From positions 8,155 through 72,154 of the IMG/VR virus record IMGVR_UViG_3300019764_000005: a DNA stretch of 64,000 nucleotides; one strand, given 5' to 3'. A program made the translations under genes and the position numbers. Below, one piece after another: positions 10,148 through 50,114 of the stretch (its first letter is position 1; each line of letters begins with the position of its first letter). This DNA is from a virus. Under the pieces are notes generated by a model. That model did not search any database. It was not told where the DNA came from and saw only the letters and a program-made list of their open reading frames with translations.

Positions 10148-10149
10148 AA

Positions 10150-35289: not shown

Positions 35290-35299
35290 CTTTATTATC

Positions 35300-35458
35300 A
35301 TGATTACAAAATATGATTTAATATCTATTCTTGTAAAAGAATACGAAAAGGATATGCAGCACGATATTAGAATCATGTTGTCAAGAGAAAAAGATTCTTT
35401 CTTTGAGTCTCAACTGCCTGTTAAGGCTATAAGAAAAGGATATTTCGTAATTGCTTAA
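35300..35458 (+). CDS. Small hypothetical protein (52 aa)
   Basis: Hand-translated ORF right after hairpin copy 1. Confidence 0.45.
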   Translation: MITKYDLISILVKEYEKDMQHDIRIMLSREKDSFFESQLPVKAIRKGYFVIA

Positions 35459-35492
35459 TTAAATTTAATTCTAATCAAATAAATCCAATATC

Positions 35493-35939
35493 ATGAAAAC
35501 TACTGTAAATTTTGAACTATCACAAGAAGACAAAAAAGGTTTAAGAACTATCCAAGCTGTTTCATATGAATATGACGGTAAAGCAGAATTAAACATTGGC
35601 AAAGTAGCGCAAAGCGTGACTAATTCAGTGTTTAGAAAGCTTGCTATCCAAAATAGCAGTTCTGTAAACTTTGGTATCAAAGTCTCAAGACCTTTCAATT
35701 TGGTTGTTACTATTAATAACGAAAAGGTGCTTGATATTGCGCAATGCATGAATCAAGTGACTGATAACTCAAAGCTGAAAATTAAAAACAAGCTTTACAA
35801 GGAAAATGCAGGCGCTGCAATGGAAGCCTTTAAAAACGACATTATTATGGTTATAGGTGAATCTGAAATGTCAGACAATGATTACAAAGACTGTATTGAA
35901 ATTGCCAAGCCTAAGAAATCAAAAACTGAAACTAAATAA
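35493..35939 (+). CDS. Hypothetical early protein
   Basis: 148-aa ORF. Confidence 0.65.
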   Translation: MKTTVNFELSQEDKKGLRTIQAVSYEYDGKAELNIGKVAQSVTNSVFRKLAIQNSSSVNFGIKVSRPFNLVVTINNEKVLDIAQCMNQVTDNSKLKIKNKLYKENAGAAMEAFKNDIIMVIGESEMSDNDYKDCIEIAKPKKSKTETK

Positions 35940-35997
35940 TTCCTTTTTCTCTTACTTACATACTCATTAAGCTACTGTCATACGATAGTAGCTTTTC

Positions 35998-36072
35998 GGC
36001 TTAGTAGCTCAGTTGGTAGAGCGCAAAGATTAAATTGTCTTTGGGTCGCGGGTTCGAGTCCCGCTTAAGCCA
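35998..36072 (+). tRNA. tRNA-like RNA with a non-canonical 10-nt anticodon loop (identity undetermined)
   Basis: GGCTTAG/TTAAGCC acceptor, GCTC-AGTTGGTA-GAGC D arm, CAAAG-ATTAAATTGT-CTTTG anticodon arm, GCGGG-TTCGAGT-CCCGC T arm; no encoded CCA. Confidence 0.8.
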
Positions 36073-36100
36073 CAAAATTATTCACTAAAATTTATATAAA

Positions 36101-36283
36101 ATGAATTCTGAAACTTTAAACCGTATTATTAATGCATTCATTGTAATCGGTCTCGTGCTTATTCTTGCCAGTGCTATATGTTTTTCTCAAGGGTTCCTTA
36201 TGGGATTTAGAAACTGGCTTGCTCCTCTGGGTATTATTGCATGGTTTATACCTGCTCCTTTCTTTATTTTCTTTGATAAATAA
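36101..36283 (+). CDS. Small two-TM membrane protein
   Basis: Two hydrophobic helices in 60 aa. Confidence 0.6.
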   Translation: MNSETLNRIINAFIVIGLVLILASAICFSQGFLMGFRNWLAPLGIIAWFIPAPFFIFFDK

Positions 36284-36292
36284 TATTGTAAC

Positions 36293-36314
36293 GCTCTTTT
36301 AAAAAGAGCACAAA
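36293..36314 (+). repeat. GCTCTTT-N3-AAAGAGC hairpin, copy 2
   Basis: GCTCTTTTAAAAAGAGCACAAA. Confidence 0.8.
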
Positions 36315-36504
36315 TGAAACTATGTTAAAAATCTACTCCTATATTAATAAATACGGGGAAAAGAAATACTATTTCACGTATGATAATAAGCGTTGGACGT
36401 ACACATGAATCTGCTGCTATTTGGGCAGCAAAGCAACTGGAAAAATGATCTGCACCATGTGCGGAAACAAAAGATAATTTTCAATAACTAAAACTTAAAA
36501 TCAA

Positions 36505-36666
36505 ATGTTTACTCTTGTAGATGACTTAGGAAAAGAAATGTATGCACATAAAGTGTATGAGAATGTTTTATCTCACATAGCAGAGAAGTTTGGAACCGAA
36601 TGCGCGGATGCTGCCAGGATTGTAGGCGAGTTCATGCATGATGGGATTTATTACTTCATAAACTAA
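36505..36666 (+). CDS. Small hypothetical protein (53 aa)
   Basis: ORF filling the gap in the operon. Confidence 0.45.
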   Translation: MFTLVDDLGKEMYAHKVYENVLSHIAEKFGTECADAARIVGEFMHDGIYYFIN

Positions 36667-36671
36667 GAATC

Positions 36672-36935
36672 ATGGAAGTTACATATGCAATTCAATGTAC
36701 TTGCGGTGCAGTCACCGTAGACTTTGACAAGGAAAATTATTCAATGACAGAGCAGGAATTTAAAGACAACTTTCCTGACACTAAACTTGAAGAAGCAAAA
36801 TATCAAGCGTGTAACCACTGCACTAATAATTGGGGCATCTCCCTTTGTTATTGCGGTAGCGGTGAGCATGTAAACACATGTAAGTGCGGGTGCAATAAGC
36901 CTGCCCAAGTTATTAGCTGTTATCAACACCCATAG
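36672..36935 (+). CDS. Cys-rich hypothetical protein
   Basis: CTCG, CNHC, CYCGSG, CKCGC. Confidence 0.6.
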   Translation: MEVTYAIQCTCGAVTVDFDKENYSMTEQEFKDNFPDTKLEEAKYQACNHCTNNWGISLCYCGSGEHVNTCKCGCNKPAQVISCYQHP

Positions 36936-36937
36936 TC

Positions 36938-37117
36938 ATGAAACAGGAATCATATTATCAAGATTACATAGTTCAAAACGGAACTATTGAAGGATTCCCT
37001 ACCTACATTACTATATCCGCCTATGAACAAAGAGAAGCCGCTAAACATGGCTTATATCTCAGTGATTTGGTAAGCGAAGCCAAGCGCAATAATAAAGATT
37101 GGCAATCAGATTGTTAG
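36938..37117 (+). CDS. Small hypothetical protein (59 aa)
   Basis: ORF abutting both neighbours. Confidence 0.45.
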   Translation: MKQESYYQDYIVQNGTIEGFPTYITISAYEQREAAKHGLYLSDLVSEAKRNNKDWQSDC

Positions 37118-37136
37118 ATTTTAAAAACTCAAACCA

Positions 37137-38057
37137 ATGACAACCAAAAATAATACCTCGAATAATTTAATCTATAAGGATTCAGTCACAATTGGAAAAG
37201 AAAGGACTACCGTTAAAATTCGATTAAACGATGAATGCAAAACCGGACATCAAGATTTTGCAATCGTCTGCGATATATATGAGCATGGGCGAAACGTTGG
37301 CGGCGGTGCTGCTCATGACCACATAAGTAAAGTATTCAACGGTAAGTATGATGATTTCATAAGACTGCATTTGTGTGACTATGCAGGTATTCCAACATAT
37401 GCTGTCGAGAATGGCTTCTATCATCTGAAAGAAGGCGGCGAGCCTATGAGTAAAGATAAGTTTTGCGCCTACTATAGAGTCTCTTCAAGTAATTACGATA
37501 TCCTAATCAAGAGTGAGCACAAGTTAGAGTTTGCCTTGCTGCTTGAATCGTTAGGTATTTTAAAAGATTGGAAAAATGAAGCTGACGCTGCAATAAAGAG
37601 GCTCGAAGGTCTGACTGGATTAATCTTCCTTAATGACTCAAAGAAAAGTCAATACAATGCTCCTGAAATTGATTTGGTAAGAGATTTTGAATCTAAAGTT
37701 GCTGCCGGATATTATGACGACGACAAAAAGAAAGCGCGATCAATACAAACCAAGGCAGACAATAAGGCTAAAAAAATAGCTGACTTGAAAGCATATGCTG
37801 CCCGTAAAATCGATAAGATTAAAACAGAATTAGCCATAGATCTGTTTATCGTTAAAAAGCTAGGTGTTGATTTTAATAATCATATTTATTACAATCACAA
37901 AAACACTCTCACTTTTAACTGGAAAGACTACGATAAAAACCTAACTGAAAAAGAATTCGATAAGTTTTGCGAGTCTATTACTGAGAATCAATTCAACTCT
38001 CTACCTGAAGGGATTGAGTTTGAATTAAAGGGTGTTAAGATATATACTAAAAATTAA
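37137..38057 (+). CDS. Hypothetical phage protein
   Basis: 306-aa ORF. Confidence 0.7.
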   Translation: MTTKNNTSNNLIYKDSVTIGKERTTVKIRLNDECKTGHQDFAIVCDIYEHGRNVGGGAAHDHISKVFNGKYDDFIRLHLCDYAGIPTYAVENGFYHLKEGGEPMSKDKFCAYYRVSSSNYDILIKSEHKLEFALLLESLGILKDWKNEADAAIKRLEGLTGLIFLNDSKKSQYNAPEIDLVRDFESKVAAGYYDDDKKKARSIQTKADNKAKKIADLKAYAARKIDKIKTELAIDLFIVKKLGVDFNNHIYYNHKNTLTFNWKDYDKNLTEKEFDKFCESITENQFNSLPEGIEFELKGVKIYTKN

Positions 38058-38069
38058 AAAGAATATCAA

Positions 38070-38342
38070 ATGAAAAAGTTTCCGAAGGTGTCAAACATGA
38101 AAAGCAATCAGGGCAACAATGTGCCTTGTCAATTTATAATAACTATCGGTGGTGATGTATTTTTCCAGAGTTACGAAACTGTAATAGCAGCCAAAGTAAA
38201 AGGAAAAACGTATCTCGATAAAAGCAAATGGGATTATTCAGCAACAACTGCAAAGTATCGCAACCAATTTCTTGGAATGACAACCAATGAGACTAAAGAA
38301 GCGATAGCTGATAAAACTATTAAGCTTAAAGACTTAAACTAA
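38070..38342 (+). CDS. Conserved phage early-region hypothetical protein
   Basis: FQSY.T.IA...WDYSATTAKYRNQFL motif. Confidence 0.65.
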   Translation: MKKFPKVSNMKSNQGNNVPCQFIITIGGDVFFQSYETVIAAKVKGKTYLDKSKWDYSATTAKYRNQFLGMTTNETKEAIADKTIKLKDLN

Positions 38343-38399
38343 TCATTCGTTGCCCATGGCTATCCGTGGGTAACTTCACTTATAAACTAATTAGAAATA

Positions 38400-38777
38400 A
38401 TGACTAAACAGGAAATATTAAAAGGAGAAGAATACATTGCTAAGCTGTTAGAAATAAAGTCTTGGTATGATGGAAGATACGGGCTGATGTATACTAGTCC
38501 TGTTGATAAGACTAGCTCATTTACAACAAAATTTCATGACTCATGGGATTGGCTGCATGTTGCTTTGGATAAAATTGAATCTATCTTGCCTGAGTGTACA
38601 GTTATTACTCTCTGGCATAACATGTGCCAAATTCCTGTTATCCCTGCAAGCTTTGAAATTGATTGCGAGGGTACGTCTAAAAAGATGGCAGCTTTTGAAG
38701 CTTGTGCTGACTTTGCCAAGTGGTATTTAGAAGAAGGTGGTAAAGAGATTTTAAATAATACTGTAACCGATGATTAA
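38400..38777 (+). CDS. Hypothetical protein, paralogue of the next gene
   Basis: FHDSWDWLHVALDKIE...F.KWY. Confidence 0.65.
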   Translation: MTKQEILKGEEYIAKLLEIKSWYDGRYGLMYTSPVDKTSSFTTKFHDSWDWLHVALDKIESILPECTVITLWHNMCQIPVIPASFEIDCEGTSKKMAAFEACADFAKWYLEEGGKEILNNTVTDD

Positions 38778-39315
38778 CCGAAGAGCAATATTTGCAGCAA
38801 GTCCTTACCTGAGAGAAGGTGAGCTAAGCGTAGAGGATCAACTAAGACTTATACTTGAGTTCGAAGGTGACGAAGGTACGCTAATCGATTTCGTTAGCCC
38901 TGACATACTGCTGGTTGAAGGCGTGGAGCTTCATTTAACCGTGAAATTATTTAAGGAAATAATATCACTATCAGTTGTCCAGGTGAAAGCTCTTACAGAA
39001 GAGGAGCTTGCCGAGGGCGTTAAATTGATTAATGTCTTTATGGGCTTGGATGAATCCGAAGACATAAAATACTACTCTGATTGGAATTCAATAATGCCTG
39101 TCTTAATTAAGATAGCAAAAGTTCCAGATGAGTTTAAAATACTTGGGTGCTTTGGCATTCATATTTTCAGGCAAGAAGTATGGATAGATAGCCCGATCGG
39201 ATTCAGAATCCATTCGTCTGAAGACTTTACAAGTACGCTTGAAAAACCTTTGGAGGAAAAAGCTTTCGAAGGTGCAATCATATTTATCAAATGGTACAAT
39301 AAAAACTTAAAATAA
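38770..39315 (+). CDS. Hypothetical protein, paralogue of the previous gene
   Basis: YYSDWNSIMPVLIKIA...FIKWYN. Confidence 0.65.
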   Translation: MINRRAIFAASPYLREGELSVEDQLRLILEFEGDEGTLIDFVSPDILLVEGVELHLTVKLFKEIISLSVVQVKALTEEELAEGVKLINVFMGLDESEDIKYYSDWNSIMPVLIKIAKVPDEFKILGCFGIHIFRQEVWIDSPIGFRIHSSEDFTSTLEKPLEEKAFEGAIIFIKWYNKNLK

Positions 39316-39326
39316 TATTCCGTATT

Positions 39327-40343
39327 ATGAAAGCAAAAGAACTTAAAGATATGCTCAATAGAGCTAAGAAAGCAATGTGTCAGAAGAAAGTAGCTCCAAT
39401 CACTGAAAAGGTGATAATATTAGACGGTGCCATGCATACAGTAGCCCTGCAAAGTTTGAATATGGAAGTTTACTGCCTGAAAGATCCGATTTTTGATGGC
39501 ATAAACGGTGGTGTTGATTTTAAAGACCTGCTGAAAATAGCTACGAAGCTTAAAAATTCAGACATCTCCATCGATCAGAACCTCGACAAGCTTAACATTA
39601 GGTCTTCGAAAGGTGTATTCAAGCTTACTATTTGTGAAGGCGATGTGAATAATATGCTGGACGTGCCAAGTGTTTACGAGACCATGTGTACTATTACGCA
39701 AGAAACTGCAGATATAATCCAAAAAGCTTTCCCGTTTGTTGGCGACGACCCATTAAGACCTATCATGTCTCACGTCCTGCTTGATGCTGAAGGTTACGTT
39801 GTAGCTTCAGATGCACACAAAATGCTATTTGAAAAGTGTCAGTCGTTCCCAGAAGACATCTATGTTTCAACCAAATTGATCGACAAAGAGTTTTCATTAT
39901 CGAAAAGTCATTGCGGTAAATGGCTGCAATTTCAATCCGGTCCTGAGACTATATTTCAACATGTGGGAGATGGCACGTATCCCGCATGGAGAAACGTCAT
40001 TCCGAAGAATCTCAACATAGTTTTAAACACCGATCGGAAGGAGTTAATTGAGAAACTTGATTTCTGTTTACTTTCTTGCAATCCTGCTTCTCAGATGGCA
40101 GTTCTCGACCTTGACACAAAGAATAGCGAAATCCATACAAGCGATATAGATTTCGGTAAAGAGTTCTCTGCTGACATTGAAAATGCCAACGCAGAAATTA
40201 AAATAGGTGTCAAAATTCCATACTTGTCCGGGATAGCAAAATCAATCTCATCTGATACGGTTAAGATTGAAATGATGGACCCTACTCGGGCTATGATTAT
40301 CAATGAGCACATACTTTTAATGCCAATGATGGTAAGTGAGTAG
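39327..40343 (+). CDS. dnaN: DNA polymerase III beta sliding-clamp homologue
   Basis: RPIM, VASDAHKM, GTYPAWRNVIP, C-terminal LLMPM; 338 aa. Confidence 0.8.
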   Translation: MKAKELKDMLNRAKKAMCQKKVAPITEKVIILDGAMHTVALQSLNMEVYCLKDPIFDGINGGVDFKDLLKIATKLKNSDISIDQNLDKLNIRSSKGVFKLTICEGDVNNMLDVPSVYETMCTITQETADIIQKAFPFVGDDPLRPIMSHVLLDAEGYVVASDAHKMLFEKCQSFPEDIYVSTKLIDKEFSLSKSHCGKWLQFQSGPETIFQHVGDGTYPAWRNVIPKNLNIVLNTDRKELIEKLDFCLLSCNPASQMAVLDLDTKNSEIHTSDIDFGKEFSADIENANAEIKIGVKIPYLSGIAKSISSDTVKIEMMDPTRAMIINEHILLMPMMVSE

Positions 40344-40436
40344 TCTTATTCAAATTCATTCTAAATACATAAATTAGCAACTTTACAATTAATAAAACTT
40401 TATTCAATTAGTATTAATCAACACCGTTAATTTAAA

Positions 40437-40913
40437 ATGAGTGGATATAAAGAAGAGGTTGACGACGAAGTATGCCGATACTGCGAGGAAAACATTTTAG
40501 AATGCTCCTCAAACTCTATTCACTTTCAATGCGAAGGTTGCAAATGCGATGAAGCATTGGAAGATTACAACGAATCTAATAATTACGAACCAAAACAAAT
40601 TCCAGAAAAAATGAACAACGAATTACAAAGTACAAAGATCGAATCACCTGAGAAATTAGAACTGTTTGTTTTATGTCCAGGGCTTTCAAAAGAAGAAGTA
40701 ACCGTTTCTTTCGACAAAAAAGAGGGTATCCTTGAGATTCAAGGCGTTCCAAACAAAAGCTCACTATCAGAAGCAGTTGAGCTTAACATTAAAGGGAAAG
40801 TCTCTATCTCTCCTAAATACCGGTCGGAAAATATTGATGCTACGGTAGAAGATGGTGTCCTTACAGTTGCTTTTGGTCTTGCAAAAGATGTGAACTTAGT
40901 AGATGTGAAGTAA
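40437..40913 (+). CDS. Hsp20/alpha-crystallin domain protein with Cys-rich N-terminal extension
   Basis: PGLSKEEVTV...IDATVEDGVLTV. Confidence 0.7.
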   Translation: MSGYKEEVDDEVCRYCEENILECSSNSIHFQCEGCKCDEALEDYNESNNYEPKQIPEKMNNELQSTKIESPEKLELFVLCPGLSKEEVTVSFDKKEGILEIQGVPNKSSLSEAVELNIKGKVSISPKYRSENIDATVEDGVLTVAFGLAKDVNLVDVK

Positions 40914-41920
40914 TGATCAAGTTCGGGATATCAGTGAACTACGTTCCAAATTGGGGCGTAGTTCAAGCTATCAGGGAGATATATCAAAACTTCATTGACT
41001 ACGGAGAGTATGATGTCGAGGTAATTGAAATAAACGACACTGTCTCAAGCGTTAGAATAAGTAGTGATTACAAGCCTGAGAGTTGGGAATTTTTAAAGAT
41101 CGGATTCTCTAAGAAAAAAGATGGGGCTATCGGAAAGCATGGGGAAGGACTTAAATTGGCTGGACTAATTTTCAACAGAAACAAGAAAGTATTCCAGATT
41201 AATTCATGTCTTGGTCAAGCTGAAGCTGCCTTTTATGATGATGAGAATCTGGGCAGTTGCTATGGGATTAAGATAGGAGATGTTACTAGTGACAGGTTCG
41301 AAGTTTACTTTGAGGCTGACAATAAGGATATTTCTATATTCAAGGATAGTAGCGTCAAAGATGAAGACATTTTGAACTCTTGTTATGTTGGCGACATTTT
41401 GAGTAAAGATCCTGGAAACATATACGTAGGACGATTATTTGTTTGTAATCTTAAAGGACTCAAGTATTCTTTGAACTTCAATCCAGACTGTGTTGATCTT
41501 GGAAGAGATAGGGATATGCCTTCTACGTTTGACTTAGAGTACTACACAAACAAGATCATTAACTCTTGTAGTCATGAATTGGAATTTAAACCTTCCGACA
41601 TACACAATAGAGAGTTTAATGTAGGGTCATTACCATCCGAACTTACACGGAAGTTCAGTCCAATTCTATCCAATGATGGAGATATTCAAATGAAAGCTGG
41701 CAAAACCGTAGTTACAGATGAATCAAAAATCAGAGAGATATCAAAAGATCCTATAGTTGCCAAGAAGGTCGAGAAACTTAAGTATGCTATTATTTACAAG
41801 CAAAAGAAAGCTCCATCGACCATCCTCACGGAACTTAAAAATAATCTCCATCTTACCCAGCAAGAAATAATCCAGTTCGATTCGATAATTAAACTGTCAA
41901 GAAACTGGAGGATTAAGTAA
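40913..41920 (+). CDS. GHKL (HATPase-like) ATPase domain protein
   Basis: AIREIYQNFID, IGFSKK, IGKHGEGLK. Confidence 0.75.
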   Translation: MIKFGISVNYVPNWGVVQAIREIYQNFIDYGEYDVEVIEINDTVSSVRISSDYKPESWEFLKIGFSKKKDGAIGKHGEGLKLAGLIFNRNKKVFQINSCLGQAEAAFYDDENLGSCYGIKIGDVTSDRFEVYFEADNKDISIFKDSSVKDEDILNSCYVGDILSKDPGNIYVGRLFVCNLKGLKYSLNFNPDCVDLGRDRDMPSTFDLEYYTNKIINSCSHELEFKPSDIHNREFNVGSLPSELTRKFSPILSNDGDIQMKAGKTVVTDESKIREISKDPIVAKKVEKLKYAIIYKQKKAPSTILTELKNNLHLTQQEIIQFDSIIKLSRNWRIK

Positions 41921-42010
41921 TGTTTTATTTGTATTCATTCTAAACACTCGAATACGTAACTTGCAACTGAAATCAACGCAGGTAACGTATTCAATTTAAT
42001 CACTTGACTA

Positions 42011-42268
42011 ATGGAAATTACAGAAAAGCAAGCTCTCAATTGGCTAATCGATTCAGTAAGCGGAAACAAAGCTGTAATAGAACAGTATGATCAGTTTCCA
42101 TTTAATGATTTTGTATGGTTTCCGAAATCGGAACTAGCCGTTTTCTTTAATGTTAGAAAACAGGAATATACTCTCACTTTGGACGGAAATAATGTATGTA
42201 AGTTTTCTGCCGAAGATGATTTATCTTTAATTGAACAGATTCACGACCAAAGACTTGAATACTCATGA
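42011..42268 (+). CDS. Hypothetical protein
   Basis: 85-aa ORF. Confidence 0.6.
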   Translation: MEITEKQALNWLIDSVSGNKAVIEQYDQFPFNDFVWFPKSELAVFFNVRKQEYTLTLDGNNVCKFSAEDDLSLIEQIHDQRLEYS

Positions 42269-42810
42269 AAAAGGTTCGCATAAAAGATCATTTGTATTTT
42301 GAACCAGGGGATTACGTCATGTATGAAACCATAGACGAACTTAAGAAGTACTTCGCGCCAAAACGTAGTTATCAAGCCTTACAAATATGCCTTGAAAAAG
42401 AAGGTTTCAAAGGTTTCGTTCAAGTTATGACTTCTGAAAGACCTTTGTTTTGTCCTGTGTTTGAAAAACATATAGAATCTGAAGATCAGTTTGTATTAAC
42501 CAAAGAATGTGTAGGTAACATGAAACTTTTAAGAACTCACTTTGGACCCAAGAATCCTAATGTGGAAGATCCTTTCACAACATCGGGTTCTACTGGAATC
42601 ACGTTAACCATGGATTCTATTGAGAAAAGAATTGACTTATTGAAGTCTTTATCACTATCCGATTTTTCTAAGGATGATGAATCGGCTATACAGTCTCTAA
42701 TCACATCTATCGAGGATCCTATAAAGGAACTCGATATTACTGAAATGACTCCTGATCTATGTGAAAGGTTGGAAGCCATTAAATTTAAATACAACGTAAT
42801 TGAACTTTAG
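42265..42810 (+). CDS. Hypothetical protein
   Basis: 181-aa ORF with ATGA overlap. Confidence 0.6.
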   Translation: MKKVRIKDHLYFEPGDYVMYETIDELKKYFAPKRSYQALQICLEKEGFKGFVQVMTSERPLFCPVFEKHIESEDQFVLTKECVGNMKLLRTHFGPKNPNVEDPFTTSGSTGITLTMDSIEKRIDLLKSLSLSDFSKDDESAIQSLITSIEDPIKELDITEMTPDLCERLEAIKFKYNVIEL

Positions 42811-42858
42811 AAGCTAAGGCGGTAGCTTTCAATACCGCCATAATCAAATTTTTACACA

Positions 42859-43350
42859 ATGAAGTATTTCGAAGCGTCAATAAGTTTCATGGGTCAAAAC
42901 CCTGCAGGTCGAGATGTTAAAGAAACAGTAACTCTGATTATGCAAACCGAGACATACGGACACACAGAAGAGTTGGCATACAAATGGCTAGAAGTTAATC
43001 CTAAAAGAGCTCCTGACGTTACAATCAAGAAAAGCACTATAGATGAAATCCATACGGATCATACTGAGGCTGATTTCTTCTGCGCTAAAATCCTTGCTGA
43101 TACTGGCGAGAAAAAGCCACTTAAAATGAATGTTTTGGTTGATGGCTACAGTGATGAGAATGACGAACAAATCCTTAAGAATGCCGAGGTCAACGTTAAA
43201 GAATCTACCCGGGATTTCCTTGCTGATATCGAGGTCTTGAAAATTGAAAAGACCAGTATTATAGAGATAGTTCCTCATGACTATGGTGCACTGAAAGTTG
43301 ATTTCGAAACAATTGGTCATGATCCTTCCAGTGACTTGAATAATGACTAA
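42859..43350 (+). CDS. DUF4494-like Bacteroidota protein
   Basis: MKYFE.SI.F...G...KE...E pattern, two-repeat architecture. Confidence 0.45.
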   Translation: MKYFEASISFMGQNPAGRDVKETVTLIMQTETYGHTEELAYKWLEVNPKRAPDVTIKKSTIDEIHTDHTEADFFCAKILADTGEKKPLKMNVLVDGYSDENDEQILKNAEVNVKESTRDFLADIEVLKIEKTSIIEIVPHDYGALKVDFETIGHDPSSDLNND

Positions 43351-43463
43351 CTACACTGAGTGTATCTACGCAGAGCAAATCGTGTTCTGCGTAGTTATGC
43401 TGTTTATCGTATTAATTCAAATATCAATAAAGGAACTGATCCTTTTCATAAAAAGAAAGAGAA

Positions 43464-43961
43464 ATGAAAGTATTAACAAATCAAGAAGAGCGGTTCCTGA
43501 TATTTGCAATGAAAAATATTCCCGCAAAATACTCTAAAGCTGCTATATGTCAATGTTTAGCTATATCGTGCAGGCTTGACCATGAATCTGTCAGAAGAGT
43601 TGTTGGTGTATCCTTAGGGTATGTCAAGAATTCTGTTTCTGGATTAAACGTCATCAAGTGGAGCGATAGACCAGAGCGTATCAGGCTTACCAATTATCTC
43701 AAGCCAAGGGTAAAGGAGGCTACTACTAATGTAAGAATGTTTCTAGTTGCTGAAACTGATAATAATCCTGTATATCTAATTACTACAGATGGTAAAGATC
43801 CTGACGAGGATTCAAAGATGCTTCATACGGGGTACATTAATATTCATAAACGTCAGGATACTAAGTATAAGGTTAGAGCTGGCAATTATTCAGAGGTGGA
43901 TATTCTCTTAACTTCATTTGGAAGTATGAGAGTAAAAGATCTTATTAATAAATCAAGATGA
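43464..43961 (+). CDS. Hypothetical protein
   Basis: 165-aa ORF. Confidence 0.6.
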   Translation: MKVLTNQEERFLIFAMKNIPAKYSKAAICQCLAISCRLDHESVRRVVGVSLGYVKNSVSGLNVIKWSDRPERIRLTNYLKPRVKEATTNVRMFLVAETDNNPVYLITTDGKDPDEDSKMLHTGYINIHKRQDTKYKVRAGNYSEVDILLTSFGSMRVKDLINKSR

Positions 43962-43973
43962 TTTGATTGTTTC

Positions 43974-43996
43974 GCTCTTTAGAAAAGAGCACAAAA
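43974..43996 (+). repeat. GCTCTTT-N3-AAAGAGC hairpin, copy 3 (directly precedes E3)
   Basis: GCTCTTTAGAAAAGAGCACAAAA-TTA-TAACG. Confidence 0.8.
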
Positions 43997-43999
43997 TTA

Positions 44000-44807
44000 T
44001 AACGGACAAGGCTATGTGGCGTGGCTTTTCGCCATGATATATAGGTAGTGTTAGGCATCTGTATTTTTTTAATTTTTTAGGGAGGGATTTTTTTATTTTA
44101 AACCAGAAACAATGATAGTATTAATAACACACGAAGAAAGCCAAACGGTAATGACTGCATTTTTAGAAGCTGGACACGATGCTTATAGTTGTGATTTATT
44201 GCCAGCAAGTGGAAAGTACCCGGAAAGGCATTTACAAATGGATTACCTAAAGGCTATTGAAAAAATACAGCCTGATTTTTTGGGTATGCACCCAGAATGC
44301 ACACGATTAACAGTTGCAGCAAACAAGTATTATAAACCTGAATATGCAGAAAGGTTTCCGACTATACACCAAGATAGATTAGAAGCGGTTGCACACTTTT
44401 TTAACTGCGCTATGGCTTTGGAAAAAATAGGTAAAGGCTATATTGAAAACCCAATTGGAATAATGAGTCGATTGTATAAAAAACCTACCCAAATAATACA
44501 ACCTTATGAATACGGACACACCGAAAGGAAAAGCACTTGTTTATGGCTTGCCGGATTACCAAAGTTAGAGCCAACAAACATAGTTGAGCCTGATATTATA
44601 GTGCATAAGAGCGGAAGAACTGACAGCCGATTACACTACGAAACATTTAAACTACCTAAAGAGGAAAGGAGAAAAGCACGAAGCAAGACATTTAAAGGAA
44701 TTGCTGATGCTATGAGTACACAATGGTTTTGAAAAAACCAAAGCGGGCGGGCAAAAATTAATAAAATATTGTGCCTAACTACTTTATATATTCACTTTCA
44801 CTTCCTA
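44000..44807 (+). mobile_element. Hairpin-cassette element E3 (54-bp A module, B module 44050-44779 with MTase, type II end)
   Basis: TAAC..CTATGTGGCGTGGC-TTTTC-GCCATGATATATAG..GTTA; B arms GTTAGGCA..TATTTTTTTAATTTTT / AAAAATTAATAAAATATTGTGCCTAAC. Confidence 0.7.
44112..44732 (+). CDS. Phage-type DNA cytosine methyltransferase-like protein
   Basis: EESQ..AF..GH.AYSCD, HPECT (catalytic Cys), IENP, QPYEYG, RSKTF.GIA.AM..QW. Confidence 0.75.
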   Translation: MIVLITHEESQTVMTAFLEAGHDAYSCDLLPASGKYPERHLQMDYLKAIEKIQPDFLGMHPECTRLTVAANKYYKPEYAERFPTIHQDRLEAVAHFFNCAMALEKIGKGYIENPIGIMSRLYKKPTQIIQPYEYGHTERKSTCLWLAGLPKLEPTNIVEPDIIVHKSGRTDSRLHYETFKLPKEERRKARSKTFKGIADAMSTQWF

Positions 44808-45107
44808 CTTACGCACTCATTTACAGTAATATGAACGGTAAAATTAATAAAACATCATATGGATAAATTCTTAATAGCCGAACGCCTAATAGTAGGAGCA
44901 TTGCTATTGTATATGATCCTACCAGTATTAGGTATAATTAGTACTAATTTAACAAGAAAAAAAGCTCATGAAAAAGCCGAAGAAAATAAAGGACCATATG
45001 TCTAAAAAGATTTTAGAGCTTGACACATCTAAGATGGATAATGAAGAGTTGTTTTCGTTCACCAAAAATAAAGAGCATTTTTTTAGAAAACTTTTAAAAT
45101 AATATCA

Positions 45108-45821
45108 ATGCAATCATTACACAGATTTTACCTCGATTTAGAGGTCGTAGGGCACAAGCCTACTATTGAAGAATTACAGGCTAAAATTAAGCCTAGTGCT
45201 AATTGCAAGACCGATGATTCCCGTCTTGCCAGTATTCAAAAGCAAACAGATGCTTTACTAAAAAACCCTGAAGCTGCACTCGAAGCTGCTCATCGTAAAA
45301 ACTCTTTGGATATTTTCAAATCCGATATTATATGTGCGGGTTTCAAATTCGATTCCCATAAAACAAGAGGTGTATGTTACATAAAGGAGCGAGATACCGT
45401 TAAGGAGTTAAATAAGATCTGCAAAGATCTTGGCACTGAACAACACTTGGTTGAGTGGGTTACTTGGAATGGTACCGAGTATGACATTCCTATCCTTACT
45501 GCTCGTGCTCTTCTTTATGGATACATGGATTTGTACAACTCTTTACCAAAGAGTAAGAACGATAAAAGGAATATCGATCTAATGCATCATGTAACTCCTA
45601 CTATTTGGAAGGCTTATTATTCACTATCGGATATTTGTAAGTATCTTGGTATTCCGGTTAAAGAAGGTCTTATTACTGGTGCTAATGTCTTTGACCATTA
45701 TTACGATGGCAATATTAAAGGTATTAGAAAGTATTGTATTCAAGATGTCCAGGCGTTAGTAAAGCTTGCTAAACGTTTTAATCTTGATTATACTATAAAG
45801 GGTAGGCATCATCTTGATTAA
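45108..45821 (+). CDS. 3'-5' exonuclease (DEDD/PolB-exo-like)
   Basis: LDLEV, TWNG..YDIP, YC..DV. Confidence 0.8.
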   Translation: MQSLHRFYLDLEVVGHKPTIEELQAKIKPSANCKTDDSRLASIQKQTDALLKNPEAALEAAHRKNSLDIFKSDIICAGFKFDSHKTRGVCYIKERDTVKELNKICKDLGTEQHLVEWVTWNGTEYDIPILTARALLYGYMDLYNSLPKSKNDKRNIDLMHHVTPTIWKAYYSLSDICKYLGIPVKEGLITGANVFDHYYDGNIKGIRKYCIQDVQALVKLAKRFNLDYTIKGRHHLD

Positions 45822-46236
45822 CGGTAAATTGTATGGCAATGTAATTTTACGGATTTGAAACACAAAATAACAATATTATGAAATGGAAATTTGAAAAAGA
45901 ATTTAGGGCAGACCACCCAGAAACAATAGGTGAAACTGATAGAGAGTTTGACATTGACAATTACAAAGATTGGCTTGAACAAAAGTTAGTAAAATTATTT
46001 GCTATACAAGATGTTAGCCAACGAAGTGAACTGTTAGCAATTGCCGCCCTCGACAAAATTGCACACCCTATTAAACACCTACAAGAAGAAGCTGAAAAGG
46101 ATGGGTGTAAACTTGATGGATATATGGCAATACAGCTAACACAAGATGCTAATTTTTACCAAGAAATTGCAGATAAAGCACTAAAGGCAATTGCTAATTG
46201 TGGCTAACTACTTTATATATTCACTTTTACTTCCTA
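45819..46236 (+). mobile_element. Hairpin-cassette element E4 (A module 45819-46016, B module 46013-46208, type II end)
   Basis: A arms TAACGGTAAATTGTATGGCAATGTAATTTTAC / GTAAAATTATTTGCTATACAAGATGTTA; B arms GTTAGCCA / TGGCTAAC plus a perfect 12-bp IR at 46034-46045 and 46186-46197. Confidence 0.72.
45878..46207 (+). CDS. Hypothetical protein spanning the A/B junction of E4
   Basis: Junction reads I-Q-D-V(GTT)-S-Q-R; stop codon is the TAA of TAAC. Confidence 0.75.
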   Translation: MKWKFEKEFRADHPETIGETDREFDIDNYKDWLEQKLVKLFAIQDVSQRSELLAIAALDKIAHPIKHLQEEAEKDGCKLDGYMAIQLTQDANFYQEIADKALKAIANCG

Positions 46237-46291
46237 TAAACGTACTCATACACAGCGGTATAAGCGGTAAATTTATAAAAAAACCAATCTC

Positions 46292-47221
46292 ATGAAACAC
46301 ATCATTTTAAGCAGCTCAATGACTACGGCTCTTGGTTTATTTGTTTGTGATGATGAAATACTCACCGTAGATCATTGTCCGAAGTATGCTAAAGCAAGGC
46401 ACATAGGCGACGAATCCATAGTGGATAAGGATTCTAAAAGTGTTCTTCAGAAAAAATACTTCAGGACGCAATGTCTTGGTACTTACAAGGATGGTGAGTG
46501 TCTTAACGATCTTCCAAGGCTTAGTAATAAATCCAAGGGTGTCGAGCAGAAAAGAATCGATTTGCAAGTTTTGGAATATCATAAGCTTATAGCAGAACGA
46601 AACATCAACGTAAACATCTACAACACCAACATGGCTTTAATAGCTTTTTTTGGACAAATTGAGATTGGGGATGATGATTATTCTGTGTGGCTTAAGGATG
46701 AGATTAGCATCTTCCCTACAGTGGTTGATTATTCTGATTTTGCCATGGTCGATCTTGAACTTACTCGGGATGTTTACAATGACTTCTTTGCTCCTGGGCA
46801 GGTAAGGAAAGTTTCTGGTAGTTGTTGGGGCTCTCCTCAGTACATTGCTAAGAACAAACCTTTATTCTCTCACTACATTGTCCGAAATATGGATAAGGAC
46901 CACATTTTAAGGCTTAATGCAGACAATACTGAGAAGGTTGAAGCTCTTATTACCGATCAAGTTATCAGGCTGTCTAAGGATGCTAAATTCTACTACATTG
47001 TATTTGGTCACACTTCAAGCAAGTCTAACAAGAAGCAAACTCGGGTTGTAAAGTATGAGTGGAACAAGAAAAGATCATCTCTCCTTGACGAACTGGTAAG
47101 TAAGGCTCTTGACATATACATGGAGAATAAAGTTAATGGTTGGGTGGCTAATCCTATCTCAGAAATATGTAATAAGTGTCCTTTAGAATGTGAGTTAAAG
47201 GACAAGGATATTGAAATTTAA
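46292..47221 (+). CDS. Cas4/PD-(D/E)XK-like nuclease, divergent
   Basis: N-terminal CP and C-terminal C..CP..C cysteine cluster; lies near the annealase. Confidence 0.4.
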   Translation: MKHIILSSSMTTALGLFVCDDEILTVDHCPKYAKARHIGDESIVDKDSKSVLQKKYFRTQCLGTYKDGECLNDLPRLSNKSKGVEQKRIDLQVLEYHKLIAERNINVNIYNTNMALIAFFGQIEIGDDDYSVWLKDEISIFPTVVDYSDFAMVDLELTRDVYNDFFAPGQVRKVSGSCWGSPQYIAKNKPLFSHYIVRNMDKDHILRLNADNTEKVEALITDQVIRLSKDAKFYYIVFGHTSSKSNKKQTRVVKYEWNKKRSSLLDELVSKALDIYMENKVNGWVANPISEICNKCPLECELKDKDIEI

Positions 47222-47233
47222 TCTTACAATGTT

Positions 47234-47428
47234 ATGATATTAGAATTTGGCAAATATAAGGGATTGAGCATTTATAGTGTTGCAGATGATGATCCAAGCT
47301 ATGTTATATGGCTTGCTCAAGAAACTAATACTGATGTTCCATTAGATGCTATAGCGTGGGCTAATGATGCTATGATGGAGCCTGATTATGAAGATTTACA
47401 TGGAGATGATTGGGGTTGTAGGGATTGA
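47234..47428 (+). CDS. DUF3820-like small protein
   Basis: FGKYKG..I..V...DPSYV.WL. Confidence 0.65.
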   Translation: MILEFGKYKGLSIYSVADDDPSYVIWLAQETNTDVPLDAIAWANDAMMEPDYEDLHGDDWGCRD

Positions 47429-47470
47429 ATGTGAGTTTAAAAATAAAGATATTGAAATTTAATTGGAACC

Positions 47471-47493
47471 GCTCTTTAAAAAAGAGCACAAAA
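47471..47493 (+). repeat. GCTCTTT-N3-AAAGAGC hairpin, copy 4 (directly precedes E5)
   Basis: GCTCTTTAAAAAAGAGCACAAAA-TTA-TAACG. Confidence 0.8.
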
Positions 47494-47496
47494 TTA

Positions 47497-47853
47497 TAAC
47501 GTTGAGCGTTTTGGTAGTTGGGATTTTGAAAGACTACCCTACCAAATATTGATAACTTTAAATAGAAATACGATGAAACAAAATAACACAGAAACCCAAT
47601 TACCTAAACATATTGTTAGCACCCGTTACTTAGATGACGATGTTGTGCTAACCACAGATGATGAGTTCTTCTTTTATTGGGAGGTTAAAAAGCACAAACT
47701 TACAGTAAAAGAAAAAGCTACAGATAAAGAAGCTGCTGAATATAGAAAGGAATTTGCGTATTGGCAAAAAGAAGAACAGGAAAACCAAACTGCTGCAAAT
47801 TACGGTAGTAGTTATGGGTGCTAACTACTTTATATATTCACTTTTACTTCCTA
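47497..47853 (+). mobile_element. Hairpin-cassette element E5 (A module 47497-47618, B module 47615-47825, type II end)
   Basis: A arms TAACGTTGAGCGTTTTGGTAGTTGGG / CCCAATTACCTAAACATATTGTTA; B arms GTTAGCACCC / GGGTGCTAAC. Confidence 0.72.
47573..47824 (+). CDS. Hypothetical protein spanning the A/B junction of E5
   Basis: ATG at 47573 (track uses TTG at 47549); junction reads K-H-I-V(GTT)-S-T-R; stop codon is the TAA of TAAC. Confidence 0.7.
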   Translation: MKQNNTETQLPKHIVSTRYLDDDVVLTTDDEFFFYWEVKKHKLTVKEKATDKEAAEYRKEFAYWQKEEQENQTAANYGSSYGC

Positions 47854-47879
47854 TTGACATGATTATTAAATAATATTAC

Positions 47880-48203
47880 ATGGCAAAAAATAATAAAAAA
47901 GCAACTACCATAAGAGGTGCCACTCCTGTAGAAGATGATAAAGCTATTAATTTTTTCTTCTACGAGGAATCGATAGATCTCGATGATAATGGCAATATAA
48001 TTGAAGTCGAAGAAGTTGTTGATGTAGAAATTGATGATTTATTATTTGCCATAGTCATAATTGATCCTGATATAAGAATAGGACCCATAACTCTCTGTAA
48101 ATGTAGAGGGATACTGAATAAAATTAGGCGTTATACCAATAAAGTATTTTCGTCTGCAAAAATAAACGTCTTAAAAAAGACCGGTAAAGCAATTTTAAAA
48201 TAA
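47880..48203 (+). CDS. Hypothetical protein
   Basis: 107-aa ORF. Confidence 0.55.
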   Translation: MAKNNKKATTIRGATPVEDDKAINFFFYEESIDLDDNGNIIEVEEVVDVEIDDLLFAIVIIDPDIRIGPITLCKCRGILNKIRRYTNKVFSSAKINVLKKTGKAILK

Positions 48204-48210
48204 ATTTCAA

Positions 48211-49329
48211 ATGGAAAACAAATTAGAAGTATTCAGAAAATTATCTCAGATAGATGTAAGTGGATTCACTAAAGAGAAGAGTGGACTAACTTATTTATCA
48301 TGGGCACATGCTTGGAGGGAAGCGTGCATTCTTTACGGTGTGGATTATACTATCTGGAAAGACGAAATGCACAGACCTTATGTGTTCGATCCAAATCTTG
48401 GGTATATGGTTTTCACTACTGTTACAATCGAATGTGACACTAAAGAAATGTGGCTGTTCGTTATGGATGGTGCAAATAAGGCTATGAAGAATGAGCCTTA
48501 CACATACAAGGTAACTGATTGGGCTGCCACCAACAAGAAAAGGGATGAAGCCAAAAGAGGAGGCATGTCAGATCGCGAAGCTAAAAGCATAACTATTTTC
48601 AAAGACAAGACTTGCGAAGCTGCTTCAATGTTCGATATTAATACCACTATCATGCGTTGCCTGGTAAAAAACTTAGCAATGTTTGGTTTGGGAATAAACA
48701 TATATGCTGGTGAAGATCTTCCAAGGGAAATTCTTCCTTCAGAAGAAGAGGCTGTAGAGGAGGTTAAGGAGTGTAAAACTAAAGAAGAGGTTAATGCTAC
48801 TTGGGGTAAGTATCCAAAATATCAGTCACAAGGTTCTGCTTTTTATATTGCTATTGCTTCAAAAAATAAAGAGCTTGCTGAGCCTAAGGCAGCTCCGGCA
48901 AAGGAGAAGGTTACTGAGGAAAAGCCTGTTAAGAAATCCACTGAGGTTGAGCCAGAAACTAAACCTGAACCCATTAAGCCTAAGACTGAAACCGAAAAGC
49001 CTAATGCTAAGGTGGAAAAACCAGCAGTCAAGGTCACTAAAGCTAAAGCTGAAGAGACAAAGGTTGATAAGAAGCCTGAAAAGAATATCTCATCCAACAC
49101 GGAAACTACACCTGAAACTAAGCCGTCGCCAGTTGATGACACAAAAACTAAGACAGCGACGGACCTCAAGGCTGCTGCAGGGTTAATCAGTCAAGCCTTA
49201 CTAGAAATAAGGGATTGTACTACTCTTAAAGCTCTCACGTCTATTTGGAACAAATATAAGCAGTTTAGAGAAATTGCTCAATTTAAAAATGCTGTTGCTA
49301 ATAAGACCAAGGACCTTAAGAAGAAGTAG
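48211..49329 (+). CDS. Sak3/DUF1071 single-strand annealing protein with a long P/K/E-rich linker
   Basis: LTYLSWAHAW, MWLFVMD..NKAM, DINTTIMRCLVKNLAMFGLGINIYAGEDLP. Confidence 0.85.
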   Translation: MENKLEVFRKLSQIDVSGFTKEKSGLTYLSWAHAWREACILYGVDYTIWKDEMHRPYVFDPNLGYMVFTTVTIECDTKEMWLFVMDGANKAMKNEPYTYKVTDWAATNKKRDEAKRGGMSDREAKSITIFKDKTCEAASMFDINTTIMRCLVKNLAMFGLGINIYAGEDLPREILPSEEEAVEEVKECKTKEEVNATWGKYPKYQSQGSAFYIAIASKNKELAEPKAAPAKEKVTEEKPVKKSTEVEPETKPEPIKPKTETEKPNAKVEKPAVKVTKAKAEETKVDKKPEKNISSNTETTPETKPSPVDDTKTKTATDLKAAAGLISQALLEIRDCTTLKALTSIWNKYKQFREIAQFKNAVANKTKDLKKK

Positions 49330-49336
49330 GATTTAC

Positions 49337-49366
49337 GGAGTCCTGTAATGGGGCTCCATTTTTTTT
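49337..49366 (+). terminator. Intrinsic terminator
   Basis: GGAGTCC-loop-GGGCTCC followed by a T run. Confidence 0.7.
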
Positions 49367-49385
49367 CACTTAAAATATCACTGCT

Positions 49386-49583
49386 ATGAAAAATGGAAAT
49401 TTATTAACTCGGTTTTTAACCAGAGATACAAAATCTAGCATTAGTGATGAAGATAAACTATTTGTAGCATCATGTTTCGCTATGCAAGGGATGTTGCAGA
49501 GTTGTTACGATAGAGGGGTTAGTCCTAAAAGAACAGCTCAAGACTCAGTGATATGTGCTAAAGAACTATTGAAATTAATTTAA
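49386..49583 (+). CDS. Hypothetical protein
   Basis: A..AMQGML...A..LL small phage-protein pattern. Confidence 0.55.
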   Translation: MKNGNLLTRFLTRDTKSSISDEDKLFVASCFAMQGMLQSCYDRGVSPKRTAQDSVICAKELLKLI

Positions 49584-49591
49584 TTGGAAAC

Positions 49592-49613
49592 GCTCTTTAT
49601 AAAAGAGCACAAA
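49592..49613 (+). repeat. GCTCTTT-N3-AAAGAGC hairpin, copy 5
   Basis: GCTCTTTATAAAAGAGCACAAA. Confidence 0.8.
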
Positions 49614-49622
49614 TAAAACAAT

Positions 49623-50114
49623 ATGGATAAGATAAATATTAGCGAAGAAATGAAAGTGCATGAAGAATGGTTTAAAGAAGCGAACATTCAAACACTTGAA
49701 ACATTGCCTGATTTCATGAAAAAACTAACTACAGCATATAGCCACGACTATGGGACTATTTGTCACGCTGTTAGTGCGGCTGCGCTCGGTGCGGCATATG
49801 CTATCAATAATAGTGATTGTGGTGGGATTACTGGATTTCAAGCAAGTGCCGTCATGTGGAGTTTTGTTCGACAATGGAATCACAGCAACAATAAACTTGG
49901 ATTAAAATTAGTGGATTACGACAACTTGCTTTATCCACAATATGAAGATAGGTTTAAAAATAAGATTAGTACTGAACATTGGGAACGCGTTCAAGAGCAT
50001 GCTAAACTTAGATTAAAGGAAAATGATGGTACGGCACACCCCAATGTTATTGCTCATTGGCAAGGAATGGCTGATGGAAATTTACCATTTGATTTCGTGA
50101 TAGGAGATGACTAA
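49623..50114 (+). CDS. Hypothetical phage protein
   Basis: 163-aa ORF, last gene of the rightward arm. Confidence 0.65.
   Translation: MDKINISEEMKVHEEWFKEANIQTLETLPDFMKKLTTAYSHDYGTICHAVSAAALGAAYAINNSDCGGITGFQASAVMWSFVRQWNHSNNKLGLKLVDYDNLLYPQYEDRFKNKISTEHWERVQEHAKLRLKENDGTAHPNVIAHWQGMADGNLPFDFVIGDD

Follow-up and report, generated by a model that had tools for sequence, protein, structure and literature searches.

How might a phage assemble a small protein from separately exchanged pieces of DNA, and what would mark the point at which the pieces meet? The question is raised by three short open reading frames (ORFs), termed E4, E5 and E1, in a marine phage of Bacteroidota type. The stretch analysed, called the window, is 64,000 nucleotides (nt) long and corresponds to bases 8155–72154 of the 72,154-bp IMG/VR record IMGVR_UViG_3300019764_000005. 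Each ORF begins in the loop of a hairpin (hairpin A), reads out through its 3′ arm, crosses a junction GTT decoded as Val and ends at the TAA of a closing TAAC. Judged from their sequences and homologues, E4, E5 and E1 appear to be real translated small genes, each divided between two DNA modules, both exchangeable, with a conserved gene-boundary signal where they join. We refer to the part encoded before the Val as the leader and to the part that starts with it as the body. A preliminary description of this DNA had gone further, proposing that any such hairpin module could join any such body module in one fixed frame at a putative recombination junction.

Organisation of E4, E5 and E1

The elements of the three loci are as follows.

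45819–45822, plus strand: TAAC opening E4 hairpin A; its TAA is the stop codon of the upstream 3′-5′ exonuclease gene
45829–45850, plus strand: 5′ arm of E4 hairpin A, TTGTATGGCAA + TGTAATTTTAC, homologous to the GTGTATGGCAAGTAA arm of the hairpin family described below
45878–46207, plus strand: E4 ORF, 109 amino acids (aa), ATG in the hairpin loop; junction IQD-V-SQ, with Val46 encoded by GTT 46013–46015; stop is the TAA of TAAC 46205–46208
45989–46009, plus strand: 3′ arm of E4 hairpin A, GTAAAATTA..TTGCTATACAA, inside the E4 ORF
46013–46020, plus strand: E4 junction GTT(A) and body 5′ arm, GTTAGCCA
46034–46045, plus strand: inner nested 5′ arm of E4, TTAGCAATTGCC, at a second GTTA (46033) where the homologues P0005 and P0012 diverge
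46186–46197, plus strand: inner nested 3′ arm of E4, GGCAATTGCTAA
46201–46208, plus strand: E4 body 3′ arm, TGGCTAAC, holding the stop codon
47497–47618, plus strand: E5 hairpin A from TAAC to GTTA, with arms at 47508–47522 and 47595–47609
47573–47824, plus strand: E5 ORF, 83 aa; junction KHI-V-ST, with the Val codon GTT at 47615
47615–47624, plus strand: E5 body 5′ arm, GTTAGCACCC, which also pairs with GTGCTAAC at 47645–47652
47816–47825, plus strand: E5 body 3′ arm, GGGTGCTAAC, holding the stop codon
1643–1772, minus strand: E1 TAAC (1772–1769), hairpin-A arms GTATAAAC (1763–1756) and GTTTATAC (1663–1656), and body 5′ arm GTTACCCACC (1652–1643)
1727–1413, minus strand: E1 ORF, 104 aa; junction LYN-V-TH, with the Val codon GTT at 1652–1650
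1412–1421, minus strand: E1 body 3′ arm, GGTGGGTAAC, holding the stop codon, with a class II repeat next to it

As had been described, the ATG sits between the long-range arms of hairpin A in all three loci, and all three ORFs end at the TAA of the closing TAAC. The lengths reported for the body modules, counted from the junction GTT to the last A of the TAA, are likewise those that we measure: 241 nt for E1, 196 nt for E4 and 211 nt for E5, each of the form 3n+1. Each post-Val segment has a terminal inverted repeat of its own that runs from the G of GTT to the C of TAAC (GTTA-var...var′-TAAC), and the E1 arms GTTACCCACC and GGTGGGTAAC reach 16 pairs if one G.U is allowed. Hairpin A of E4 comprises about 21 bp and is present in both the minimum free energy and the centroid folds. 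In an AlphaFold model of E4 (mean predicted local distance difference test score 72), Val46 lies in a non-helical linker, residues 43–47, between a helix at the N-terminus and a C-terminal part of four helices that is predicted with more confidence. The E4 leader is probably translated, because differences between loci fall mainly at third codon positions.

Homologous proteins are mosaics that break at the junction Val

A search with the E4 protein returned 32 proteins, many of which span just 25–78% of the query at 54–96% identity. Their alignment contains four variants of the leader MKWKFEKEFR..ETIGETD..NYKDWLE.., joined at Val to at least 12 unrelated tails; tails at E4-type junctions start, for example, with VSQRSELL.., VSNNEV.. 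(zinc-ribbon-like), VSNCA.., VNHST.., VRLAL.. or VSGSF... Conversely, the E4 body (..LAIAALDKIAHPIKYLQ..ANCG) is found with five different N-termini. The E5 body, conserved at 60–90% identity across nine proteins, breaks at V|S, and the 9–20 residues that precede this point are unrelated among them and comprise at least seven leader types. One leader type (..NEEKGN.VL..) is common to the E4 body (in P0010) and the E5 body (in P0037). The halves before and after the Val had been predicted to be separately exchangeable, and the proposed search for either half with unrelated partners and a breakpoint at that Val is positive for the homologues of both E4 and E5. E1 has two relatives, near-identical and full-length, which are uninformative on mosaicism.

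When the 46-aa leader was used in a library search, 276 representative clusters were found at E ≤ 0.001; 151 leader clusters were inspected, the core was present in 113, and in 109 of those it was N-terminal. The 104 tails of at least 20 aa behind the leader fall into 101 blastp clusters, a diversity favoured by the clustering of the library at 50% identity. An 8-residue linker after the junction Val, V-x-x-R-S-E-L/Q-L, recurs in mosaics (P0005, P0012, P0025, P0065, P0074 and others), and the tails diverge past it. The second GTTA, at which the E4 linker ends, suggests a nested joint.

Residues 57–103 of the E4 body (46046–46186) share 49% identity over 47 aa with a hypothetical protein of Acinetobacter phage YMC11/11/R3177, so that this body module appears to extend beyond Bacteroidota phages. 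That phage was the only match for E4 in a tblastn search against isolated phages, in which E5 and E1 had none, and neither Pfam nor PHROGs contains a family for any of the three. In another phage, a locus at L021 2501–2719 (also L020) has just the last ~40 codons of the E4 body; the homology stops within the 3′ arm (..TGTGGCT then GTTG.. versus AAC in the window) and the ORF continues into unrelated sequence. Searches of viral contigs with the alignments A4, A2 and A5 gave 1, 1 and 2 loci only.

Metagenome loci with leader homologues share the layout ...var′-TAAC-GGnnnn-arm...arm′-nnT-GTTA-var...var′-TAAC-GG..., with TATACA placed 2–4 nt ahead of GTTA in differing codon phases. Because the spacing of TATACA and GTTA is kept while the codon phase varies, the junction is best read as a nucleotide-level signal.

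A covarying hairpin family at gene boundaries

The sites described above belong to a hairpin family of the form TAAC-GGACGAG-GTGTATG...TATACAC-ATT-GTTA, or more fully TAAC, a GGACGAG-type linker, a 5′ arm GTGTATG-NNN-NGT.., a loop, a 3′ arm ..AT-NNN-TATACAC, ATT and GTTA. The E4 arms align nearly base for base with the family members L035, L102 and L092. The isolated Polaribacter phage P12002L has compact, 55–75-nt versions between many of its early genes. A 17-nt search pattern, TAACGGACGAGTRTATR, derived from the leader-homologue and P12002L sites, occurs in 96 stretches of viral contigs, 84 of them distinct, and 61 of the 84 have a matching 3′ arm, followed by GTT, within 420 nt. The resulting hairpins span 57 to 401 nt and fall into discrete classes (57–58, 87–90, 114–126, 141, ~200, 221, ~290, ~325 and ~400 nt). 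They lie nearly always directly after a stop codon, the motif is on the ORF strand in 73 of 80 loci, and no U-run follows the stem. All 100 occurrences of GGACGAGTRTAT are preceded by TAAC, the loci having been fetched with a pattern that begins with TAAC.

For the 87–91-nt class (13 sequences), RNAalifold returns one 22-pair stem, with compensatory changes at nine pairs and four G.U pairs that never vary. In this alignment 98.3% of cells are paired, compared with 30–50% when the partner is slid, and the covariation score of the stem is 0.368 versus 0.121, with none of 500 shuffles reaching it. The linker GACGA pairs with UUGUU and, as such, the junction GTT has two alternative partners: it could pair within the hairpin or with the AAC at the end of its own cassette. 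A covariance model built from the 13 sequences (R1) matches the window at 44000–44053 (29.5 bits, E 0.0016) and, weakly, at the E5 hairpin 47497–47618 (19.1 bits, E 0.27). Rfam contains no family for the window region or for 10 family loci, and literature searches by motif and topic, whose reach excluded subscription papers and bioRxiv supplements, found no description of the family.

A scan of genome contigs with the pattern gave 86 stretches, near the chance number by a rough estimate, and about 22 distinct ones with a full hairpin. Full family hairpins are also present in large Bacteroidota chromosomal contigs, L132, L136, L188 and L193 (Bacteroidales bacterium CF, Pukyongia, Joostella, Sunxiuqinia), where they presumably sit within prophages.

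Closing stems of the cassettes

The complementarity between GTTA-var and var′-TAAC seen in E4, E5 and E1 recurs across the family. A cognate GTTA-var partner of 8 nt or longer is present at 34 of the 80 sites that have 300 nt or more of upstream sequence (27 at 9 nt or longer), whereas non-cognate pairings give a mean of 3.3 and the wrong, downstream side gives 6. Complementarity of a cassette's own ends is found in E1, E4, E5, the methyltransferase cassette of the window and P12002L gp35, gp38, gp53 and gp54; the latter are whole genes flanked by cognate GTT..var and var′..AAC arms, as is gp55 with one mismatch.

The stems also indicate the strand on which they fold. At the first position past the perfect arm, 31 of 50 distinct stems have a G.T or T.G wobble and one has A.C, after which pairing usually resumes; over the first four positions the tally is 96 Watson-Crick pairs, 47 wobbles, 2 A.C and 55 others. 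Hairpin stems and closing stems alike covary, and two features, the excess of wobbles over A.C in the closing stems and the four G.U pairs that never vary in the hairpin, argue that both fold on the sense strand.

In this genome, GTTA..TAAC pairs 60–500 nt apart number 2 with arms of at least 10 nt (0.22 expected; 6 of 300 shuffles reach 2) and 4 with arms of at least 9 nt (0.95 expected; 3 of 300 shuffles reach 4). The 72-kb genome has 18 GTTAGC/GCTAAC hexamers, and 7 of them lie within the ~200-nt E4 and E5 segments. Genome-wide counts of TAACGG, CGGTAA, GTTAGC and GCTAAC are without enrichment, and GTT..AAC pairing of 9 nt or more within 2.5 kb stays at the background for AT-rich sequence (42 versus 39 in P12002L, 16 versus 17.8 in this genome). 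A strict detector of perfect arms recovers E1 alone in the genome, that is, 2 when counted on both strands against a shuffle mean of 0.73.

These counts bear on the explanation that nothing special is present: the genes would be ordinary small ORFs in which the N-terminal domain is conserved and the tails evolve fast, and the repeats would be due to chance or codon usage. Arms of at least 7 nt are indeed at chance genome-wide (36 GTTA..TAAC pairs on both strands versus a shuffle mean of 36.6), and the distant leader homologues L006, L008, L010, L015 and L017 have variable tails without a V junction. Such an account is nevertheless very improbable, as it meets the 34 cognate against 3.3 non-cognate arms, the covariation of the hairpin stem, the sharp joints of near-identical hairpins described below, the same bodies behind different leaders, and the same conserved nucleotides read in two frames, as ..IH.V or as ..LYT.L.

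The reading frame at the joint is not fixed

How general is the frame used by E4, E5 and E1? In 76 distinct combinations of a hairpin with its downstream sequence, 26 have a loop-started ORF that crosses the joint by at least 20 codons, so the split-gene layout appears to be common in the family. Fourteen of these ORFs read GTT as Val (phase 0; 3′ arm ..IH.V), 10 are in phase 2 (..LYT.L) and 2 in phase 1. Reading of GTT as Val every time is thus correct for the three ORFs of the window, which all belong to the commonest phase class, and fails across the family, where 12 of 26 crossing ORFs are in other phases; the fixed frame does not generalise. Cassette lengths agree with this: sorted by length modulo 3, the 34 de-duplicated cassettes form groups of 15, 8 and 11. 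Among 24 short cassettes, 14 are 3n+1. Given three junction phases, swaps would keep the frame only within one phase class, and the proposal that any hairpin module can join any body module in frame has to be dropped. Because the remaining 50 of 76 hairpins have no crossing ORF, many cassettes probably carry whole ORFs, as does the methyltransferase cassette of the window.

Probable exchange at both hairpin ends without a recognised recombinase

Pairs of similar hairpins locate the points of exchange. Among 60 site pairs with hairpins at least 90% identical, 54 share neither flank, 5 share the downstream flank only, 1 shares both and none shares the upstream flank only. In near-identical pairs, upstream identity ends at the base before TAAC and downstream identity 0–14 nt past GTT. 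From these limits, and from the 0/60 upstream-only pairs, both hairpin ends appear to be joints and the hairpin appears not to be tied to the cassette that precedes it. The recombination junction of the preliminary description survives as a point of exchange; in the integron sense it is not supported, in view of the recombinase searches, the strand of the fold and the linkage of the flanks.

As in integron arrays, short genes are parted by imperfect hairpins that end in ..AAC / GTT.., the stop codon often lies in ..TAAC, and the 5′ end of each cassette complements its own 3′ ..TAAC. An integron-like explanation would have attC-like hairpins form from single-stranded DNA and circles excise and re-insert through a structure-specific recombinase, of the host or not yet recognised, cutting at G|TT or TAA|C. 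The layout R″(..TAAC)-spacer-L″-loop-L′-spacer-R′(GTTA..), in which the first bases of a cassette complement its own ..TAAC end, and the razor-sharp breakpoints favour this. A second inverted pair of the L″/L′ type is present, as the 22-pair stem contains the L arms, with unequal linkers (GGACGA(G) versus ATT) and a variable loop. Qi et al. (2023) called clusters of attC sites lacking integrases (CALINs) in phages, and HattCI called one P12002L family member attC; the hairpin family includes their P12002L_attC1 oligo, and P12002L attC2 of the same study is a different sequence in the opposite orientation (PMC9892861).

We consider this explanation a serious contender, though less probable than the reading favoured below. 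A search for the tyrosine recombinase family PF00589 drew a blank in the source record and in five more records that carry the elements, of which two have a completeness of 90% or more and one is P12002L, a complete genome, and family scans of the window proteins found no integrase, invertase, transposase or reverse transcriptase. While AAC and GTT are invariant, the attC rule RYYY/RRRY is often broken (GGCTAAC, TGCTAAC, GGGTAAC). To judge from the wobbles, folding takes place on the sense strand, but in attC it is the bottom strand that recombines. P12002L_attC1, the sole family member tested, is the exception among six sites tried with IntI1, in that its junctions are not reported as verified in the part of that report available to us (PMC9892861). 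A hairpin is linked to its downstream cassette alone in 5 of 60 pairs and to its upstream cassette alone in none. The near-invariance of the hairpin core over many phages, the ORFs that often start in the hairpin loop and cross the joint, and spans of up to 400 nt likewise set the family apart from integrons.

Alternatively, the hairpin might itself be the mobile unit. A selfish element, similar to a miniature inverted-repeat transposable element, could spread to gene boundaries, and the split genes would be by-products of insertions and of ORFs grown in the loops. Hairpins 90–99% identical, loops included, stand in unrelated contexts in 54 of 60 pairs, and the discrete span classes from 57 to 401 nt and the imperfectly inverted termini (TAAC..TGTAT / ATACA..GTTA) would suit such an element. 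There is, however, no target-site duplication and no transposase; the elements are nearly always on the coding strand, straight after a stop codon; and insertion leaves unexplained why the right flank of a hairpin should complement the left flank of the hairpin that follows it. This origin is therefore improbable in our estimation.

Inversion is the remaining candidate. In the R64 shufflon, the Rci recombinase acts at sfx repeats, and sites located within an ORF leave the N-terminus constant and provide a choice of C-termini; the Rci-dependent inversion takes place within one genome, and the segments carry ORFs on both strands. A body segment of the present phage that flipped between inverted repeats could likewise change the C-terminus within one phage population, and the inverted repeats lie within the ORF, with a constant leader and varying C-termini. 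Unlike the R64 segments, the inverted E4 segment would truncate the protein (GTT AGC CAC AAT TAG, a stop after four codons), and the variation here lies between genomes. Neither an invertase nor, in the sparsely covering contigs of the sequencing run over the region, a strand-changing joint was found. Of the explanations considered this is the least probable, and together with chance it is effectively excluded.

The search of the sequencing run gave DNA contigs only, of low depth and sparse cover. An apparent joint in them, 47501 to 44700, is the D2 repeat (see below) mapping twice and is no rearrangement. A 120-nt skip (45867 to 45988) is present in one short low-depth contig.

A sense-strand reading and its weight

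The reading that we favour, at about an even chance, is that the hairpins and closing stems are sense-strand punctuation of early transcripts, most likely acting as RNA, and that their invariant ends double as recombination joints. The first module would be a family hairpin whose loop has grown to hold a ribosome landing region, an ATG and 14–45 codons; the second would be a cassette closed by its own stem, GTTA-var...var′-TAAC, the TAA of which is the stop codon. In early polycistronic RNA the stems could act in processing, in stability or in the display of start codons. The invariant ends (..TATACAC-ATT-GTTA and TAAC-GGACGAG-TGTATG) would provide portable joints for recombination between co-infecting phages, probably by short homology and aided by the Sak-type annealing protein, exonuclease and Rap/NinG nuclease of the phage, in the manner of the promoter-early stem-loop (PeSL) cassettes of T4-like phages. 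Exchange at GTT would put an incoming body behind the resident leader, in frame if both belong to the same phase class.

Several observations pull in the other direction. Transcription, processing and translation of the elements are all deduced from DNA, and the model R1 did not recover or span the long-looped hairpins of E4 and E1. The shared ends are just ~14–17 nt, short for homologous recombination, and the 54 of 60 near-identical hairpins with unrelated flanks look more like precise site-specific or transposon-like movement than like scattered crossovers. An RNA function alone has no obvious need for every cassette of 84 to ~1400 nt to be closed by its own stem; by analogy with integron cassettes, the same pairs would lengthen the hairpin in an excised circle. 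G.T pairs are tolerated in folded sense-strand DNA too. Finally, the source record is 68% complete by the CheckV estimate, so a recombinase could lie outside it.

A broader formulation, which we put forward as tentative, is that Bacteroidota phages possess an integrase-free cassette-shuffling system. Proteins might then be assembled in the style of exon shuffling from mobile start-and-leader modules housed in loops and from stem-closed body modules, guided by sense-strand structure (RNA or displaced single-stranded DNA), with the work done by an unrecognised enzyme or by the annealing and junction-nuclease set of the phage.

Known systems share parts of this design. The early transcript of T7 has intercistronic RNase III processing hairpins of ~20 bp with irregularities, on the sense strand between early genes. 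The present family similarly consists of conserved sense-strand hairpins between early genes, for which cleavage is only putative; to our knowledge, the T7 sites enclose no start codons, have no gene-closing partner stems and are not known as swap joints. Rickettsia palindromic elements lie in frame in protein genes and are translated. They share with the present hairpins the tolerance of palindromic nucleotide elements in coding sequence and differ in being copies of one sequence, whereas in the present family it is the hairpin that is conserved and each unit has a translated cargo of its own. In the PeSL cassettes of T4-like phages, conserved regulatory stem-loops stand between small non-essential genes in plastic regions and act as exchange points between otherwise unrelated sequences (PMC2839356, PMC4122927). 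The family likewise places a conserved stem-loop between small genes in plastic regions, where it marks exchange points. According to the accessible parts of the two reports, PeSLs are promoter-plus-terminator units between whole ORFs, coupling a strong sigma-70-like early promoter to a terminator stem-loop and giving rise to mini-circles when neighbouring copies recombine; they occur in a different phage group and have a different sequence, and neither cassette-specific closing stems nor split ORFs are described for them there (PMC2839356, PMC4122927).

Phages were already known to carry attC-like sites, and regulatory stem-loops had been described as points of shuffling. New are the size, covariation and sense-strand signature of the hairpin family, the cassette-specific closing stems, shown with controls, and protein genes routinely split across a joint and recombined there. 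If the proposal is correct, it offers a concrete, sequence-defined mechanism by which phages invent and trade small accessory proteins, since standardised joints would allow a promoter, start and leader piece to be re-used with hundreds of bodies. Because it is abundant (96 viral-contig stretches with one 17-nt pattern), strongly structured and without an Rfam match in the regions searched, the hairpin family would show, in many uncultured Bacteroidota phages of marine and gut origin, where genes are bounded and where pieces are swapped. It also advises caution, in that shape alone is insufficient to call such sites integron attC. The same sites in a cultured Polaribacter phage provide testable handles.

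Genomic setting and other cassettes of the window

The proteins of the window include portal, terminase, GroEL/GroES, tail and lysis proteins; GroEL and two GroES-like proteins are encoded at 8928–11796 on the minus strand. An early or replication block at ~35,000–50,100 on the plus strand contains a DNA methyltransferase, the 3′-5′ exonuclease, a Sak-like single-strand annealing protein and many small ORFans, as well as a tRNA gene (35998–36072, plus strand; Rfam RF00005, 56.8 bits). Exonucleases are also among the recombination genes of the window. The methyltransferase ORF (44112–44732, plus strand) shares 81–82% DNA identity with its counterparts in Cellulophaga phages (phi19:1, phi19:3) and Flavobacterium phages, and the host is therefore probably a member of the Flavobacteriia. 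Further features are these.

2180–2848: NinG/Rap, a recombination gene
48211–49326: the Sak-like single-strand annealing protein, a recombination gene
44000–44053, plus strand: compact family hairpin (TAACGGACAAG...GTGTTA) before the methyltransferase cassette, the stronger of the two R1 matches
44050–44779, plus strand: whole-ORF methyltransferase cassette, with GTTAGGCA at 44050–44057, the ORF at 44112–44732 and TGCCTAAC at 44772–44779
13271–13354, plus strand: 84-nt unit without an ORF, GTTAGGCAC...GTGCCTAAC, with a class II repeat next to it
44779–44808, 46208–46237 and 47825–47854, plus strand: class I repeat CTACTTTATATATTCACTTTTACTTCC, directly after TAAC in three places, where a hairpin would be

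The homology of the methyltransferase is limited to the ORF, and the flanks are unlike. The homologues in Cellulophaga phi19:1 and phi19:3 (L023, L024) have a hairpin-motif count of 0 in a regular-expression search, which suggests that in at least two phages of this group the gene was transferred independently of the sites. The homologue in Flavobacterium phage lillamy9-1 (L025) is followed closely by a TAACG..GTAT motif and has, on its upstream side, a weak match to the covariance model.

The class I repeat may be a promoter; an exact-match search of viral contigs gave 0 matches. The class II repeat occupies ~70 nt after TAAC, at 1412–1340 (minus strand) and 13354–13425 (plus strand), and holds two small hairpins, AAAGCAC..GTGCTTT and CGTCC-GTTTTAAT-GGACG; its loop motif CGTTTTAATG recurs in P12002L and metagenome hairpins. 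A third repeat, D2, is a hairpin, GCTCTTTAAAAAAGAGC, followed by ACAAA, at 43959–43995, 47456–47492 and 49577–49613, with a weaker copy near 36283. Two D2 copies precede ..TATAACG and a family hairpin, and D2 looks like a terminator or boundary element. Between E4 and E5, the last 37 nt of the gene at 46292–47221 (..ECELKDKDIEI*; 47186–47222) recur with 86% identity at 47427–47463, just past the small ExoX-like_C gene at 47234–47428, which looks as if it had been inserted with a target duplication.

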